Below are positions 7,613-64,000 of a stretch of DNA of 64,000 nt, piece after piece. The notes beneath the pieces were generated by a model. It searched no databases, was not told the origin of the DNA, and saw only the letters and a list, made by a program, of their open reading frames with translations. Source of the stretch: Carcharhinus amblyrhynchos (Eukaryota); NCBI GenBank assembly GCA_965287045.1, contig OZ336870.1, positions 151,466,001 to 151,530,000 of the forward strand. The letters run 5' to 3'. A program made the translations under genes and the position numbers. Within the stretch, counting starts at the first letter, position 1. Every line of letters starts with the position of its first letter.

Positions 7613-10568
7613 TACTAATATTACGTAATACTTTTACTGGCGCATACAAATGACATATACAACAACATTTTCTGGTTGTGCCTGCTCTGAGGCCAGAAAT
7701 TCCCATCTGGGGTCAGTGAACCTTTGAACGGCCTGTCAAATTGCTGTCCTGGCCATGACAATTCCTGCAGCAGACAGGATGGAAAATTCACCCCTTGGTT
7801 CTCGTGGTTCTGCAGTGACTGTGGGATATCACATATCCGTGTATAACTATTGACTTAAAATTCTTCACACCATGATTTTGAAATGAATTAAAGTAATGGC
7901 GAGAGAAATTCCATACAGACACCTGATTCTGATATTTCTCTTTTTAACCTGGGATATGCATCATTTCTAGAGGCAAAGGAGAAGTCAGAGGTGGAGGCCC
8001 ATGATGTTCTGTCTCCACCGTTTGATACAACTATTGAATTTCCTGGACTTCCCCATTGTTCTGGATGGGGTAGGAGGCTGGGGGCGTGGGTGCAGTTAAT
8101 GAGGATAGGATGCATATGTCTACGATACGTGCAGGGAAAGGGTGGGTGTACAAATAAAGGGAACAGGAGGCAAATTTTACTCCTGTCTCATTTTCCAGAA
8201 GGTTTTTGAATAGCAGCACCTGAAAAAAAGCTGCATCTAACTTTTTAGCTGCACCACCACCAAACACCTCCCCCCCCCCCCCCCCGCCCCCAATCCCCTC
8301 ATCCCCCAATCCCTGCAAATCAGATTGGCACCATCTGAAAGCACCAAGCAAAAAGACAGCCTAAAAGGGCAAGTGCCCATCATTTTGAACAGGATTATTT
8401 TGGATCATCAGGGCTGCTGAGCACCTTCTGGCTGGTGTTTTTTGATCTCAGCTGAAGGCCCAGTGCTGATGGTCATTATTACTGCAGCAGGCACTGGCTT
8501 CCTGGCTGCACTTCTGAATGCAGAGCCTGCTCAGAGGAGCTAGGGCCCTCACTGAGGGCATTTTAATAACTGAGAATGCAAATATTGATATTTGAATCCA
8601 GTCTACAGTCATAACGTATATGAGGTGCACAGCTGAGTCTAACTAGTAGACAGACTGAGGAGAAAAACATGGAACTGTTTTGTAGTCTCTCATGAGTATC
8701 CCATGGAGTAAATTTCAGGCCCATCAATATTAACTAATTGGTTATTTTTACGTCCCTAAATTTCATCCAATATCGACCAAGATCAATTTTAACGGATTCT
8801 GATTATTGATCCATGGAAGAGAGAAATTTCCAGTCACCTGTAGTACTAAATTTGTTCAAACATTGATTGTGTTTTTAGCTAATACTTTCAGTGCAGTGGC
8901 TCTTTCTTTTTAATCTACTCCCTCACTTCATGTTATTTTCCTTGCACTAAAATGCGTTCCCTCCACCTTAATACAGAGCCCCCCACTTACTTACAATGCA
9001 AAGCTGCTTATATAGCTGGTGTTCATTATGAAAAAAAGATGAAACAACCACATCCACGTTGAACCATTCAAGACTGTGGTAAATACAAACTCCTTGCTCA
9101 GATCTTTCAATGCTGATGGAATGACAAGGGAGGATTTGAATAAACAGAGGCACCTGTACATACAAGCCCTTGAATATAATGCTGCCGAGTGAAAATACCG
9201 TTAAAGTACAGAAGAGCAATTACAACTGGCATGAAAATGTTCAACTGCACATGTTACTTGTTAGAAATAGAACTTTATAATGGTGAGGCTTACTTTTTAG
9301 ATATGCTGTGGTAGGTAAATTTACTGCATGATACCATCTGTACATTGCTGACTGTTTTTCTTTTAAAGACAATCCGAATACCGTGGTTCAACTGATGTGA
9401 AAATTCAGATTCAGGTTTTGTTTTGCTTTCATCAGTATCACACCACCTCTGCTGTTCTCATCACTCTAATGAGGTTTGGCACTTTCCTCTTCTTCAAATG
9501 AACAGGCACTTTTTTTTCAAATAGGCTTCTGTGTGTTTTTTATTTTCGATGTAAACAGGACAGTGAATATCCAGCTTTCTGGATCTTTGTTCTCTGACAG
9601 CTTTCAGAGGATTTCTTTTGGTCTACATTGTGAGGTTCAGAGCACAAAATCATCAATGAACGATTCACGCTGCTCCTTTGGTGGTTTGTCAAATTGAAGT
9701 TCACTTCCGTCAGCCAGTAGAAAGGCTGCTAATCCCAAAAGCCAATGACACTGCATCTAAATCAGTAGCATTTGAGCAAAGAAATGGCAGACTGATCAAA
9801 CCTAAGACATTCCGCAAACAAAGTAAGAGATTGCACTGAAATACGTATACCCCACACCAGCTGTATACTGATGCCACAGATCACTTGATTGTTTTAGAAC
9901 AAATATTTAAAATGATCTTCCCTGAACATAGGTCCCTCACCTTCCTCAACACTGTTCTCTGCCCAGTTTTCAACCTACACACGTCATCCAACTTCTCTAT
10001 CTCCTATCCTCACTGAATTTCAGAGTTTATTGTATCCGTACCCATAGGCATCTATCAACTTTGCCAGTTCCCATGGACTTGTTGAGCTCAAGGATCAGAA
10101 TTTTCTTGTGTCAGGGATCCTGAGAGGCAGAATGGCACAGGCATGCAGCTGCCAGACAATTACATACGCAGAAGTGAGAGCCACAGCCAATCATGCAGCA
10201 GGAGCAAGCAGGACGTCACCAGCCCCACCATCATCTCATGCAGTCGAGGATCTGAGGGCTATATTTGAAAGATGTCTGGACTGGCATCCACCCTGTCACC
10301 CCTGTCATCCTGCAGCATCGGTCTGGCTGTTTATGAGGAGTTTGTAACCTTTGGATCTGCTGGAATTTACACAATGATGTTTTATAAGGAGATGAACATA
10401 TCTTTCTAGGCTCATTCTGGCTAGAATCCACATGCAGTGGTGTCACCATTCTGAGTGGTACATTGCTTCGTTACCTTTGCCCTGCCTGTGATTATCCTTG
10501 ACCCACTCTCCATCACCCTTGATGAATTATAATTCATCCTAGAGCTTCTCTCTGTCACCATTGGTCAG

Positions 10569-10934
10569 CACCTTCTCCACCTTTGCTGCCACCTTCAAGG
10601 ATCTGTGGACTTGCACACCCAGGTCCCTCTGTGCGTCTATACTTTTGATGGTTCTGCCATTTATTGTATAGCTCCCCCCTACATTAGTCCTACCAAAATG
10701 CATCACTTCGCATTTATCTGGATTAAATTCCATCTGCCACTTCTCTGCCCAATTTTCCAGCCTATGTCCTGCTGTATTCTCCGACAATGTTCATCGCTAT
10801 CCGCAGTCCAGCCATCTTCGTGTCATCCGCAAACTTACTGATCACACCGGTTACACTTTCTTCCAAATCGTTTGTCTATCTCACAAATAGCAGAGGTCCC
10901 AGTACAGAGCCCTGCAGAACACCACTGGTCACAG
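10569..10934 (-). repeat. Inverted 366-bp copy of the internal CR1 segment 11669-12034
   Basis: Base-by-base comparison shows 5 mismatches in 366 bp and no indels between the arms. Confidence 0.92.
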
Positions 10935-11569: not shown

Positions 11570-12650
11570 TTGCTATGGGATAAAAGGAGAGCTGGCTAGA
11601 TGGGCAGAGAACTGGCTTGGCCACAGAAGACAGTGTAGCAGTGGAAGGGTCTTTTTCCGGCTGGAGGTCTGTGACCAGTGGTGTTCTGCAGGGCTCTGTA
11701 CTGGGACCTCTGCTATTTGTGAGTTAGACAAACGATTTGGAAGAAAGTGTAACCGGTGTGATCAGTAAGTTTGCGGATGACACGAAGATGGCTGGACTGC
11801 GGATAGCGATGAACATTGTCGGAGAATACAGCAGGACATAGGCCGGAAAATTGGGCAGAGAAGTGGCAGATGGAATTTAATCCAGATAAATGCGAAGTGA
11901 TGCATTTTGGTAGGACTAATGTAGAGGGGAGCTATACAATAAATGGCAGAACCATCAAAAGTATAGACGCACAGAGGGACCTGGGTGTGCAAGTCCATAG
12001 ATCCTTGAAGGTGGCAGCACAGGTGGAGAAGGTGATGAAGAAGGCATATGGCATGCTTGCCTTTATAGGATGAGGCATAGAGTATAAAAATTGGCGTCTG
12101 ATGTTACAGCTGTACAGAACGTTGGTCAGGCCACATTTGGAGTACTGCGTCCAGTTCTGGTCACCGCACTACCAGAAGGATGTGGAGTCTTTAGAAAGAG
12201 TGCAGAGAAGGTTTACCAGGATGTTTTCTGGTATAGTGGGTCTTAGCTATGAGAAGAGATTGGGTAAACTGGGGTTGTTCTCCCTGGAAAGACGGAGAAT
12301 GAGGGGACACCTAGGAGAGGTGTATAAAATTATGGATAGGATGAACAGTGGGAAGCTTTTTCCCAGGTCGGAGATGACAAGCACGAGGGGTCACAGTTCA
12401 AAGTGAGGGGGGGGAGGTTTAACTCAGATATCAGAGGGATGTATTTTACACAGAGGGTGGTGCAGGCCTGGAATGCACTGCCATGCAGGGTGGTGGAGAC
12501 GGACATGCTGGGATCGTTTAAGACTTACCTGGATAGTCACATGAGCAGATTGGGAATGGAGGAATACAGAAGAATGGTCTAGTTGGACTAATGAGTGGCG
12601 CAGGCTTGGAGGGCCTAAGGGCCTGTTTCCTGTGCTGTGTTGTTCTTTGT
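11570..12650 (+). mobile_element. CR1 (HER1-like) LINE, 5'-truncated, with 3' tail
   Basis: aagtttgcggatgacacgaag (KFADDTK), WQMEFNPDKCEVMHFG, LVRPHLEYCVQFWSP; tail gggcctgtttcctgtgctgtgttgttctttgtt; contains frameshifts and stops. Confidence 0.92.
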
Positions 12651-29655: not shown

Positions 29656-29781
29656 ATTAAGCCGGTAACTTGTTTAAGGAAAACCTCAGAATGGGAGGTG
29701 TAGGAAGAGAAACATCAGGCTGTATTTCCATTTTTAAAATTTGAGTGTACTCATTATATTTTCTGGCCTTTTTATTTCCAG

Positions 29782-30701
29782 GACCCAGTTCCCAGTTGGC
29801 GTACACCATTGCATCTGGAGATTCACTGCAACATTTTGATATAGATAATAATGGCATCCTGCATATTAAGCAACAGCTGGATCGGGAAAGCCAATCATTC
29901 TACAACCTGCTGATAAGGGCTCATGATTTATCTCTTCCCCTAGCAAGTAGACTTACAAGCACTGCACAAGTCTCTGTTATTCTGCTGGATGTCAATGATA
30001 GCCCACCGAAGTTTATTTCATCTAAGATAGCCTACATGCAGGAAAACTCTCCAATGAACACTGTCGTCTATAAAGCCCAAGCCACTGACCCTGACAGTGG
30101 ACCGAACAGTTATGTTGAGTACACGCTAAGGCGCTCAGGAAACAAATTCAATATTGGGACAATAAATGGGGAGTTGCGACTGGCAGGTGAACTTGACAGG
30201 GAAGAAGTCTCGAATTATACATTGACTGTGATTGCTACAGACAAGGGCGAACCTCCTCTCTCATCGACAATGGATGTTACTGTGATTGTGCTTGATGTGA
30301 ATGATAACACACCTGTCTTTCAACAATCTCTCTATGAAGTTGAGATTAGTGAAAATACCCTTAGTGGCATTGATCTCATTCAAGTTACTGCAACTGATTT
30401 AGATGAAGGAGCTAATGGTCAGATCCGTTATCATATCGCCCAGGGCAATCACAACAATGATTTTCGAATTGACTCTGTTACTGGTATTGTATCAGTAGCT
30501 AAACAACTTGATCGTGAAACGAGACCTTCATATTCTCTGATTGTCCAAGCAACTGATCGTGGAAGCAGCCCACAAACTGCAACAGCAATAGTAAAGGTTG
30601 ATCTCACAGATGTGAATGATTTTATACCAATCTTTGAATTATCACCCTACACAGTGCACGTGCAGGAAAATGCACAGAATCTGCCAAAGTCTGTTTTACA
30701 G
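29782..30701 (+). CDS. FAT4: FAT4 internal coding exon, 920 nt, phase 1/0, about three cadherin repeats
   Basis: Acceptor tttttatttccag|GA, donor CAG|gttagt. Contains LDRE, DVNDSPP, DVNDNTP and DVNDFIP motifs and ends ...ENAQNLPKSVLQ. The 354-aa ORF call extends into intron at both ends. Confidence 0.96.
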
Positions 30702-31529
30702 GTTAGTGAAATCAAGAATTTATTGTGGTCTGCAATAATACTTCTTCCATTTAGCTATAAGATCAATATTATAATTAAATCTGATTACTATGTTGCATCC
30801 ATGTGTTAGTCAACCTCTATATTATGTTTCTCCTAATGCTGAAAATGTAGCAAATCATACTGGTCTGGGCTTTGCTCTGGAGATGTAGGTGATGCTGTTA
30901 AGTGGTCATGAACACGTTGGGCAGATTTCTCAAATGGCTAGAACTTAACTGATTGCCATAGGTCCTGATGTTGATTGGAAGGAGGTCAACTGTCCCCATC
31001 CCCACCTCTTTCCCCACAGTCAGTTTGTGGTGGGGGATTACTGGGTAACTTATTGGATCTGAAAGAAAGACTGCTTTGCCCTAAAGGCACATATTTCATG
31101 AATTCAGTCCCTCCTGCTTGTTTTAAGCTGCTATGTTTCCTGAAACTTGGGATACCCAGTCACCTATGACTAAAATAAAATAACTGCTAAAATGAAGACA
31201 TGGGGCCTCAATTATTTAAATATTTATCTAAATATTTAAACTTAATAATCCATTTCCTATGAGCAAACAGGTCTCCAGTTCCTCGTTCCAGCTTCGTTAA
31301 AACTAAAACTGGGCAGAATCAAGGAGAGTTTAGCTCCTGCCACAGATTTTTTGCTTTTTAACCTCTAACGCAACTTCAGCCCAACAGTTTGAGGTGTTGA
31401 AATTCAGCCCTTTTTTTGTAAGTACAGTGATATAATTAACTGAATGTTTTATGTGAGCTCTCACCAGTGCTTCTTCGAATATTACTGTGACATCATTGGA
31501 TTTACATATCCTCTGGATTTATGCTATAG

Positions 31530-31704
31530 GTTGTAGCTCGTGATGATGACCAAGGGCTGAATGGCCAGCTGACTTACACAATTGTTGGTGGGAATGCAGA
31601 AGAAGCTGTTACTTTGACACCCAGTGGGCTGCTAAGCCTGGTCATGAACCTGGATCGTGAAACAACAGCACAATTTGTCCTGACAGTCATTGCTACAGAT
31701 GCAG
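31530..31704 (+). CDS. FAT4: FAT4 internal coding exon, 175 nt, phase 0/1
   Basis: Acceptor atgctatag|GTT, donor GCAG|gtaaaa. Encodes VVARDDDQGLNGQLTYTIVGGNAEEAVTLTPSGLLSLVMNLDRETTAQFVLTVIATDA. Confidence 0.95.
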
Positions 31705-31754
31705 GTAAAAGCAAGTCTCATCTGTATTCCAAAGTTGTTCAGTGGGTTGGTGTT

Positions 31755-32014
31755 GGTGGCACAGTGGGTAGTCCTGCTGCCTCACAGTGCCAGGGACCGA
31801 GGTTCGATTCCGGCCTTGGGTCACTGTCTGGGTGGAATCTGCTCGTTCTTCCCGTGTCTCTGGTTTCCTCCAACAGTCCGAAAGACATGCTGGTCAGGTG
31901 GATTGGCCATGCTAAACACTCCCTCAGTGTTCCAGAGTGTGGTGACTAGGGGAATTAGACAGTAACCTCATTGCAGTGTTAATGTGAATCTATTGATGAC
32001 ACCAATAAATAAAC
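31755..32014 (+). mobile_element. tRNA-derived V-SINE about 50 nt downstream of a FAT4 splice donor
   Basis: ggtggcacagtgg...ctgctgcctcacagtgccagggacc.aggttcgattcc, V-domain, tail ending aataaataaac. Confidence 0.85.
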
Positions 32015-61014: not shown

Positions 61015-61205
61015 GCTGCCAGGGATGGTGGTGCAGGCAGAAGCAATAGGGGCTTTTAATGGGCTTTTAGATAAGCGCATGAATATGCAAGGAATAGAGG
61101 GATTTGGACGAAGGGCAGACAGAAGGGATTAGTTTAACTTTGGTATCATGTTCGGCACAATATCTCGGGCCAAAAGGCCTGCTCCTGTTCTGTACTGTTC
61201 TGTGT
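61015..61205 (+). mobile_element. CR1 LINE 3'-terminal fragment
   Basis: LPGMVVQAEAIGAFNGLLDKRMNMQGIEGFG followed by gggccaaaaggcctgctcctgttctgtactgttctgtgtt, a CR1-type tail. Confidence 0.8.
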
Positions 61206-61550
61206 TTGGACCTATGCACAATAGCTTGTGATCTGCCAGCCACTTCTATGTTCTGTACATTCAGTCCAATCCTGCACATGGTGAACACTCATTAATAACT
61301 GCTTGACACAGATCTTCACAGGAGGGAGATTGAAAAACCTATCCAGCGTAAAGCTAACTCCCGCTTGAGGATGCTTAGTAACAGGTCAGTGGAAGCCAAA
61401 GCTGTTGCTCTCTGTAACTACCCTCCATATTCCAGAAAATCAGAAGCATTTTCTGCTGAACAACCTGAGAGTATCTGTTCCCATCAAGAATTACAGGAAA
61501 GAATGACTGGGGGAGACCATTTTTCAATTAATTTCAAAATCTGGATTCTT

Positions 61551-62023
61551 AAGAACATAAGAAATAGGAGCAGGAGTAAGCCATCTAGCCCTTCGAGCCT
61601 GCCCCGCCATTCAATAAGATCATGGCTGATCTGTCGTGGCTCAGTTCCACTTTTCTGCCCTCTCCCCATAACCCTTAATCCCCTCGCTTATCAAAAACCC
61701 ATCAACCCGCGTCTTAAAAATATTGAGCGAGGCAGCCTCCACCACCTCAACGGGCAGAGAATTCCAGAGATTCACCACCCTTTGAGTGAAGAAGTTCCTT
61801 CTCAACTCTGTTCTAAACCGCCTCCCCTTTATGTTGAGGCTGTGCCCCCTAGTCCTACTGTCCTTTCTGAGCGGGAAGAGTCTCTCCACCTCTATCCTAT
61901 CCATCCCATTCATCATCTTATATGTCTCAATGAGATCTCCCCTCATTCTTCTAAACTCTAACGAGTACAAGCCTAGTTTATTCAGCCTCTCCTCATAGCT
62001 CAACCCCCTCAACTCCGGCATCC
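61551..62023 (-). mobile_element. Young CR1-clade LINE 3' end (ORF2 C-terminus, 3' UTR and tail)
   Basis: Minus ORF MPELRGLSYEERLNKLGLYSLEFRRMRGDLIETYKMMNG...TRGHSL...RRNFFTQRVVNLWNSLP. Tail reads aagaacataagaaataggagcagg on +. CpG-rich. Confidence 0.93.
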
Positions 62024-62038
62024 TTGATCTCCCCCAGA

Positions 62039-63423
62039 ATGAACTACATACTTCTCTGCTATCTGGGATTCCTCGTCTCAGACCGAACCACAGATACCAC
62101 CTCAACCGAAGACCAGCCTATGATACCCTGGATATATGTGGTTCACCCCACCAAAGCAGGCAAATGTGAGGATGGCAAACTATGGGTACACTCCAATAAG
62201 AGTATCACCTATGGATGTAATAACCAAAGAGTGGTGTATAGGAAAGATAACGGGAGCTCTGATTACTGCTCCCTAAGGATGACCCTCACTAGTGACTGGT
62301 GGGCATACAGTAACCGTGGGTGCATGGAGCTAGCCTGTCTAGCCTATGGTCCAAAAAAAGGGCTGGAATTGGGAAAGAAGATTATTCAGAACGAGTATAT
62401 CTGCTATGAAATTAAGAATGGGTTAAGACTAACTGTTAGCACACCCATCTCCACTTGTCCCGAAACCACTCCAGGGCCCCAAAATGGGTTGATACTAAAA
62501 CACACAGGAAAAATCTTGTACGACAACATCCACCACAAATTAGTACCTGTGGTGGTAGATATTGCTGGGACCCAACTGCCAGAATGGTGCTCTCCCCAGC
62601 TGAAGAGATTATACCTCCACTTAACTCGCAGACTGTCAGGACAGAAGGTAGGAATGGATGAGAGACAAGAAAGATCCAAGAGGGAGTTAGTCAATGACAT
62701 GGCCACAGCATACGGGGCAGGGGTAGCAACTATCAATGCCCTTGATTTAGCTGACCTGGACAATAAACTTAGGGTTTTGACCCAACAGGTTAAACAGACA
62801 CTAAGTTCTATCAATGACGACAATCAGCAAGATGCTGAAGGGGAAGTGATTGGGAATGCAGCCAGCAGCCACATGGTAGCTATATTAGAAGGACATGCCA
62901 AGACAATCAATCAAATTATTAGGGAAAAAATAGAGGGTGACGACCGACAACAAAACCGGACTTTATGTAGTGCATATGGACAGTGGATGATAGAACAGCT
63001 AAGGGAAAACCTTGAGCAGGTATGTAGTGGACAGGTTCCATCTTGGATTAGTGACGAACAGATGGAACATCTATTTACGGGTAAGAAACACCCCGGGTTA
63101 TCTGGTTGCCAGATGTGACAGTTGACCAAAGTCTGGTTCAACGATGACTGCAAAGGGACTCCAGGGAAAGCCCTGGGAATGATATTAGGGCTCCCCATAA
63201 TCACTGACGACCAGGTTGGACTGAGGGTCTTTGAAGTGGAAAATATAGGAACTATCCATGAGGATATCTGGATAGGGTACGATGGCATTTTACCATACGC
63301 GGTGGAAAAAGAAGGGAGACTCATAGGCACTACTCTGGACAGATGTCAGCAAACTGATGAAATAATTGCATGTCCGTACCCAGTTTATTTAAATGAGCAT
63401 GCACTGTGTGGCTTCAGAACAAA
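62039..63423 (+). pseudogene. Endogenous viral envelope / class I fusion glycoprotein (F-like env) gene, one premature stop at 63116-63118, 3'-truncated by CR1
   Basis: ATG at 62039 with hydrophobic N-terminus MNYILLCYLGFLVS; N-glycosylation sequons NKS, NGS, NRT; furin site RSKR at 62672-62683 followed by Ala/Gly-rich ELVNDMATAYGAGVATINAL and a heptad-like helix. After the TGA the same frame stays open (QLTKVWFNDDC...GMILGLPII...LDRCQQTDEIIACPYPVYLNEHALCGF). No transmembrane anchor before the CR1 junction. Confidence 0.8.
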
Positions 63424-64000
63424 CAGGCATTTTGAGGGGAATTGCTTGTTAGAGCAGACGCAGCACGGTTTCGTTAAGGGGAAGTCGTGTCTGACAAATT
63501 TATTGGAGTTCTATGAGGATGTGTCTAGGGCGGTGGATGGAGGAGAGCCGGTGGATGTGGTCTTTCTTGATTTTCAGAAGGCGTTTGACAAGGTTCCTCA
63601 CAAGAGGTTATTGCAGAAGGTAAGGGGGCATGGAGTTGGGGGTAAGCTGTTAGCGTGGATAGAGGATTGGCTGTCAAATAGGAGGCAGAGAGTGGGGGTC
63701 AATGGGTGCTATTCGGATTGGCGGTTGGTGACTAGTGGAGTGCCCCAGGGGTCGGTGCTGGGGCCTCAGCTATTTACCATTTATATAGATGATCTGGAGG
63801 AGGGAACCGAGTGTATGGTGTCGAAATTTGCTGATGACACCAAGAGTGGTGGAACGGCAAATTGCGTGGAGGGTGTGGAGAGTTTGCAGAAGGATATAGA
63901 TAGGCTGGGCGAATGGACCAGGAACTGGCGAATGGAATTTAATGTTGGCAAGTGCGAGGTGGTCCACTTTGATAGGAATAATGGTAGGAAGGACTATTAC
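63424..64000 (+). mobile_element. Young CR1-clade LINE, 5'-truncated, reverse transcriptase core, runs off the window
   Basis: Stop-free frame translated by hand: QHGFVKGKSCLTNLLEFY...VDVVFLDFQKAFDKVPH...SGVPQGSVLGPQLFTIYIDDL...SKFADDTK...KCEVVHF. CpG-rich. Confidence 0.93.

Follow-up and report, generated by a model that had tools for sequence, protein, structure and literature searches.

SnRV is a retrovirus of 10,688 nt (PMC12193657), and SnRV-like ERVs, among them CmiERV lineage I, are known from the elephant shark (PMC4422223). Lokiretroviruses have an F-like Env and, according to PMC7947760, were found in none of six Chondrichthyes (0/6). The Env of foamy viruses was shown by cryo-EM to be F-like, with a core common to the F proteins of paramyxo- and pneumoviruses (class Ib), and orthoretroviral Env is assigned to another class (PMC11468914). 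A gamma-type Env is marked by an ISD and a CX6CC motif in TM and by a CXXC motif in SU (PMC9967133). How retroviral Env originated is an unsettled matter: Env of lokiretroviruses and foamy viruses is F-like, and orthoretroviral Env is held to differ in origin. The scenario preferred in PMC9040795 is 'independent capture' of Env.

We analysed 64,000 nt of DNA from Carcharhinus amblyrhynchos, and this whole stretch is referred to as the window. Close to its right end, at 62022–63425 on the plus strand, lies an env fragment. Our overall reading, to which we assign a probability of roughly 0.78, is that this is a dead, truncated piece of env from an ERV that is likely related to SnRV and has a predicted F-type Env, and that it was likely carried to its present site by a 5′-inverted CR1 retrocopy.

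The fragment consists of a 17 nt leader and codons 1–462 of env, with the ATG at 62039. As described in the initial annotation, one frame runs from 62039 over 461 codons with a single TGA, a signal-like start, three N-glycosylation sequons, a furin-type RSKR site (62672–62683, plus strand) and the later motifs GMILGLPII and RVFEVENIG. Frame translation puts the TGA (63116–63118, plus strand) at codon 360. The further view that the gene is near-intact does not hold. Besides the stop, an 8-nt and a 1-nt deletion (at 62108 and 62154; 62108–62154, plus strand) shift the frame of about 15 codons (24–39) in comparison to L023, L029, L130 and L131, and env is cut at 63425, leaving about 462 of the 671 residues of the intact reference Env (L043). 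The last ~200 residues are missing, and with them the second heptad, the membrane-spanning helix and the tail. Because it has no membrane anchor, the window copy cannot mediate fusion, and it is a dead env fragment. A further deletion of 12 nt at 62378 is common to the subfamily of the window copy. The earlier reading, made from the letters of the window, overlooked CR1 pieces on both sides of env and the fact that the env frame continues into a CR1 reverse transcriptase.

A DNA search of the genome with the window env gave at least 49 matches (40 of the 315 candidates were scored), well above chance, and ten other copies are 94–95% identical to it over ~1.4 kb. It is composed of two parts of different origin. 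The 5′ part (62039–62443, plus strand), encoding the signal peptide and the N-terminal surface part, stems from a family that we call B: in segments of 100 nt it is 91–96% identical to L130/L131, versus 58–76% to L043. The 3′ part (62444–63425, plus strand) stems from family A and encodes the furin site, which is the sole such site in L043 Env, the fusion peptide, the first heptad and the start of a beta-rich region. From ~62539 on it is 91–100% identical to L043 versus 62–76% to L130 (per 100 nt), and the whole block reaches 95.7% to family A.

The last cadherin-repeat exons upstream of the insertion lie at 29745–31946 (plus strand), and the next cadherin exons follow ~15.5 kb beyond the window end (L150–L152). 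Since cadherin exons flank the insertion on both sides and on the same strand, it is intronic. The placement in an intron of FAT4 made by the initial annotation is thus confirmed for an intron of a cadherin gene on the plus strand, which is presumably FAT4. On the left, env adjoins the 3′-terminal part of a CR1 LINE (last part of ORF2 plus tail; 61550–62022, minus strand), which is 93–96% identical to other CR1 3′ ends and showed very high depth in four runs. On the right, the 5′ half of the same CR1 copy with its RT region follows in inverted orientation (63425–64000, plus strand; Pfam RVT_1, E = 3e-24; 92–95% to other CR1 copies) and extends 286 nt past the window. The insert, CR1 3′ end plus inverted block of env and CR1, thus has a length of 2737 nt. 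In coordinates of the CR1 in L039, the minus half covers 2434–2906 and the plus half 4068–2905, with an overlap of 2 nt and no loss. Such a single meeting point between oppositely oriented halves of the same LINE is the layout of a twin-primed insertion. Twin priming as source of 5′ inversion is documented for L1 (PMC2837659), and our literature search found no publication showing it for CR1 in the texts available. Compared with the L1 insertions of that study, some of which contain extra RNA-derived sequence, the window has in common the opposite halves and their single meeting point; it differs in that the element is a CR1, no target duplication is present and 1.4 kb of retroviral env lie at the inner junction.

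These observations suggest that the env fragment was brought into the intron within a 5′-inverted CR1 retrocopy, and likely not by retroviral integration. The CR1 reverse transcriptase may have copied an RNA that read from env into CR1, arising from a read-through transcript or by template switch, and copying would have been primed twice, leaving the block of env and CR1 inverted relative to the CR1 3′ end. The junction between env and CR1 was found in 1 of 40 scored matches (319 candidates), which is the window locus itself, where it is in frame; no source locus with the same junction was seen among these 40. On this count, a CR1 family that itself encodes env was rejected. Neither LTR, gag nor the remaining env was detected in the window or in the 8 kb beyond it, and no target-site duplication was found at the insertion, where the only repeats (5–6 nt) lie off the junctions. 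In principle, the arrangement could also be the remnant of a provirus that integrated here, received a CR1 insertion in env and then underwent inversion and deletion at the DNA level. The missing target-site duplication would fit this history, as would the CR1 insertions that are common in copies of this ERV family (L013, L035–L053) and the documentation of 5′ inversion by twin priming for L1 (PMC2837659) with none found for CR1. However, it needs two more clean deletions by which gag, the remaining env and both LTRs vanished without trace, and the left end corresponds exactly to the CR1 3′ tail, with the CR1 halves joined without loss. We therefore consider an integration in place unlikely and prefer transport by CR1.

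The left flank (window 61077–61574) allowed a view on the presence of the insertion in different sequencing runs. In runs X7 and X8 it enters the CR1 end by 23–24 nt, and in runs X1 and X3 it continues with ~740 other letters instead of CR1. Two of the organisms thus likely carry the insertion and the other two likely lack it, as judged from a single observation in one table. Elsewhere in the window, positions 10565–10934 and 11669–12038 form a CR1-like inverted repeat of 370 nt that is 98% complementary, with 734 nt in between; this is possibly a second inverted CR1 insertion.

A search of the genome with the env protein gave at least 136 matches with 46–100% identity (129 scored of 1020 candidates). 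Both flanks were fetched for 19 copies, six of the gag-pol-env type (L042–L051, L058/59) and thirteen with the window env type. The full-length relatives that the initial annotation had proposed to look for are present in this genome: complete gag-pol-env proviruses span ~11.2 kb between LTRs of 785 bp. The LTRs begin with TG and end with CA, and of 12 scored copies, 8 are flanked by target duplications of 4 bp. Ten of 12 copies have a primer site of the type that matches the tRNA-Asn(GTT) genes of the same genome (4/4 loci scanned, out of 15 matches). In L056 and L058 (2/12 copies), the primer-binding site directly behind the 5′ LTR is unlike the tRNA-Asn type and may be Lys-like and Arg-like. 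The start of gag is coiled-coil-like and its end carries a CCHC zinc knuckle; Pol has the order protease, RT, RNase H-like tether, RNase H, integrase. A single in-frame TGA separates gag and pol (L042: 5556–5558), which implies opal read-through. Pol and env are ~0.8 kb apart, and 0.4 kb lie between env and the LTR. The intact Env (L043) has 671 residues with the anchor at ~620–648.

The LTR pairs of the fetched copies are 94% to 100% identical. In the provirus at 112.66 Mb of G000:C1 (L042, L043) the LTRs are identical at 785/785 nt and the frames of gag, pol and env are open, and two further proviruses (L046/L047, L048/L049) have LTRs with 99.5% identity. This bears out the view that env derives from a recently active LTR retroelement, here a gag-pol-env family. 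These findings agree with two of the three features by which ongoing invasion is recognised in PMC10435555; in the available part of that study, invading ERVs were found in none of 13 cartilaginous fish (0/13). A family B provirus (56.27 Mb of G000:C14; L130, L146, L147) has LTRs of 91.7% identity and a broken pol; despite this, its env is one open frame of ~685 codons.

The window env type sits in proviruses of 6.7 kb whose LTRs and gag, through the whole of the zinc knuckle, belong to family A, and in which all of pol is missing. Behind gag, family B sequence follows and reaches ~410 nt into env, where the elements return to family A. Their LTR pairs are 94–98.6% identical (thirteen fetched copies). 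Such a subfamily could have arisen when A and B genomes that were packaged together recombined, and by analogy to the complementation in trans described for ERVs (PMC10435555) it may have spread by borrowing Pol. The BHIKHARI elements of zebrafish, non-autonomous endogenous lokiretroviruses, are likewise pol-less and spread in trans (10.1101/2024.03.25.586437); unlike what is described there, the shark subfamily keeps gag and env, and its env is a recombinant of two families. In the env alignment, a frame change near codon 105 occurs in 9 of 14 window-type copies examined, the window included (L025, L031, L033, L035, L037, L039, L041, L053, L055), and is absent from the window copy; it suggests an inherited break in copies that went on spreading. 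Four pol-less copies (L035, L037, L039, L053) contain a ~2-kb antisense CR1 piece at the same place between env and the 3′ LTR (~2434–4480 nt after the env start). All four lie in tandem arrays and two have their right flank in common, so that a single, later duplicated insertion may account for them. The arrays and the common flank weaken the idea of CR1 as an amplified cargo. At L028, ~2.0–7.6 kb upstream of env, a different element bearing gag/pol apparently lies within the gag of a pol-less copy.

The intact Env shows the order furin site, fusion peptide, heptad, long beta-rich C-subunit, second heptad and one anchor, based on a secondary structure prediction of low confidence, and the same order is found in foamy Env and in F of paramyxo- and pneumoviruses (PMC11468914). 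From the cleavage site to the anchor it has ~400 residues, versus ~145 in a gamma control. No ISD, CX6CC or CXXC was detected in L043 Env, while CX6CC was detected in the gamma control; SnRV Env has no CX6CC either. The absence of the gammaretroviral ISD and CX6CC, already remarked for the window, thus extends to the full-length relative and speaks against a gamma-type Env.

A full HMMER scan yielded 112 Env relatives. Ten were looked up, and eight clusters could be named (cyprinids 2, sharks 3, frogs 3); P0017 and P0126 are from Mustelus. Some relatives are part of gene models with Ig-like domains (P0138 by name, P0149, weakly P0199), an F-box (P0150) or a transporter (P0017), and some of these may be annotation fusions. 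A 144-row Env profile matched the SnRV Env (L070, see below) over 445 columns (HHalign 97.6%, E = 3e-12), and HMMER scored SnRV Env with 41.7 bits compared to at most 2.8 bits for reversed controls. An earlier profile of 22 rows scored 46.5 for SnRV versus at most 27.8 in 60 shuffles, with no significant score for foamy Env. With the 144-row profile, 12 aligned foamy Envs were matched over 114 columns (HHalign 78.8%, E = 1.7e-5) at foamy residues ~697–815. The controls gave E = 0.038 (reversed foamy), 0.057 (gamma Env) and above 0.5 (SnRV gag and pol), and one non-F control, the Env of the epsilon-like L076, reached E = 0.0024. HMMER placed its best stretch in the same region of 9/9 foamy Envs, with domain E values of 9e-8 to 0.19 on a one-sequence scale.

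Searches for a known fusion protein family had been proposed on the basis of the window. Pfam Fusion_gly (PF00523) matched 0 of 73 relatives (among 25 of 36 families listed), nor did it match the window protein or L043 Env, and the single Baculo_F match among the 73 (E = 0.0011) stayed below the cut-off. Searches of Pfam, PDB sequences and a word-indexed protein collection, with either the window protein or an intact Env as query, identified no family and returned a single near-identical metagenome piece. The profiles A2 and A3 found nothing significant among PDB sequences and no F protein there, and SnRV Env alone as query gave no match in the genome. AlphaFold on alignments of 1 and 22 rows produced no confident fold (pLDDT 36 and 33). 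Foldseek on the low-confidence model had no significant match, with paramyxovirus F among the weak rows (E > 0.04, TM about 0.1); results from models of pLDDT 33–36 were not counted as evidence.

Taken together, the profile matches to SnRV and foamy Env and the lack of gamma marks argue for the earlier suggestion that Env is F-like and not gamma-type, and we predict with considerable confidence from these sequence comparisons that the Env of this family is of F type (class Ib). An intact Env would then be cleaved at RSKR and would fuse membranes like paramyxovirus F or foamy-virus Env, as judged from profiles and layout. It could instead be that Env is related to SnRV Env and has a non-F fold, the link to foamy Env being a short chance or convergent match. 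The low-confidence models, the absence of a significant structural match, the extent of only 114 columns and the E value of 0.0024 for the non-F control L076 would all be compatible with this. Yet the match falls in the same region in 9/9 foamy Envs with cysteines in register, reversed controls are clearly weaker, the distance from cut to anchor is far from that of a gamma Env, and the weak Baculo_F match lies in the same part of Env, which makes a non-F fold improbable. The F-type Env predicted here differs from that of foamy viruses by its short signal peptide, single anchor and much shorter surface part.

A profile scan of viral contigs gave 13 loci, with the best match to L070 (10,688 nt). 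Because its length is that of SnRV as given in PMC12193657 and its RT equals the SnRV row in the supplement of PMC7947760, L070 was taken as SnRV. Scans of the viral contigs with a single RT or a single Env as query found no match. The RT of the shark family is 45.5% identical to SnRV, its best named viral match, versus 36–40% to foamy and gamma/epsilon viruses. The closest relatives of the Pol, at 43–58% identity, are proteins of frog, turtle and coelacanth as well as unnamed ones, and over the RT the identity to such proteins is 44–58%. Two RT trees were calculated from 53 of 154 rows and from 30 rows, picked as group representatives. Loki rows were not among them, as a Loki RT pattern matched 0 stretches and Loki motifs were found in 0 of 123 proteins. 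In both trees, gypsy, foamy and gamma/epsilon groups were strongly separated, the shark, frog and SnRV rows did not form one clade, and the gypsy root lay near the shark-family group. A single clade of shark and SnRV was not rejected by the AU test (p = 0.064). The integrase core is 38.7% identical to SnRV, 42–45% to epsilon-like viruses and 52–60% to frog-type relatives. Since the integrase is closer to epsilon-like viruses than to SnRV, a plain SnRV label is weakened. Based on these comparisons the family is likely SnRV-related and class III-like, it likely belongs to the SnRV clade, and it is possibly a basal branch. SnRV also resembles the 11.2-kb shark provirus in that its gag and pol share a reading frame with a single stop; it differs in its open frame for Env, which has 1134 residues versus 671 and a short tail in the shark.

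Two groups are ruled out as source of the fragment. For an env-bearing Ty3/Gypsy element (errantivirus), one of the options raised initially, the dual RNase H and the separation of the gypsy rows with 100/100 support in both RT trees speak against it. Against Spumaretrovirinae stand the foamy rows, which group separately (100/100) and leave the shark row outside in both trees; in addition, the shark gag differs from foamy gag by its CCHC knuckle.

The initial annotation proposed a lokiretrovirus-like or other F-carrying retroelement, and a true lokiretrovirus would be the first in cartilaginous fish. The resemblance is considerable: gag-pol-env lie between LTRs with the order PR-RT-tether-RH-IN, and dual RNase H, an RXKR site and an F-like Env, in the shark family a predicted one, are common to both (PMC7947760, PMC9040795). 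The motifs behind the heptad recur by eye in unchanged order in a translation of the published Loki-Lch env, the integrase is by eye ~48% identical to the Loki-Lch row, and the best Pol relatives carry NYNRIN-like names, in line with the CGIN1/NYNRIN-like integrase of lokiretroviruses. The gypsy root close to the shark group in both RT trees can also be read in this direction, and with 0/6 Chondrichthyes in PMC7947760 such a lineage would be new for the class. Against this, motifs common to all eight Loki RT rows of the published alignment are absent from the shark RT, and the SnRV row agrees with the shark at these places (by eye). Of the first 186 RT residues, by eye ~95 match SnRV and ~72 match Loki-Ame. 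Env gave no direct PF00523 match. With its SnRV-type RT motifs and its SnRV-like best named viral match, the family is thus very unlikely to be a true lokiretrovirus lineage. The proposed novelty for cartilaginous fish as a host class falls as well, as SnRV-like ERVs have already been described from a chimaera, the elephant shark (PMC4422223).

That the window fragment is a domesticated or otherwise functional gene (a secreted Env or an Env-RT fusion) is hardly credible: the long open frame, the signal-like start and the in-frame continuation into the CR1 RT would allow it, but the TGA at codon 360, the shifted codons 24–39, a divergence of 4–6% as in any other copy, a junction seen once and the probable absence of the insertion in 2/4 sequencing runs speak against it.

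Our literature search found no published statement that Env of SnRV or of the SnRV clade is F-like; subscription papers, preprint supplements or Repbase entries could hold one. The available portions of PMC11468914, PMC13709493, PMC9967133, 10.1101/2023.10.26.564294 and 10.1101/2024.03.17.585361 contain none. The interest of the locus, which is itself dead, lies in the likely F-type Env of the whole SnRV-related branch, in very young copies and in a LINE-borne fragment. In the window, a LINE has likely moved retroviral sequence, and the family offers a young shark ERV with identical LTRs and a natural swap of the N-terminal part of Env between two families. The chain of profiles from the shark family to the Env of SnRV, which is classed as an orthoretrovirus, and on to foamy Env makes the idea of 'F-type first' testable with database sequences (112 relatives). 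We tentatively propose, and rate as somewhat below an even chance, that a widespread, unrecognised class III-like branch comprising elements of sharks, cyprinids and frogs and the exogenous SnRV has kept the F-type Env as the ancestral retroviral Env together with a Loki/CGIN1-like integrase, and that the family is still entering the shark germ line. If true, gamma- and beta-type Envs would be later replacements, contrary to the 'independent capture' put forward in PMC9040795, and the family would, next to the 0/13 cartilaginous fish in the accessible part of PMC10435555, be the first retrovirus seen still invading a shark germ line.
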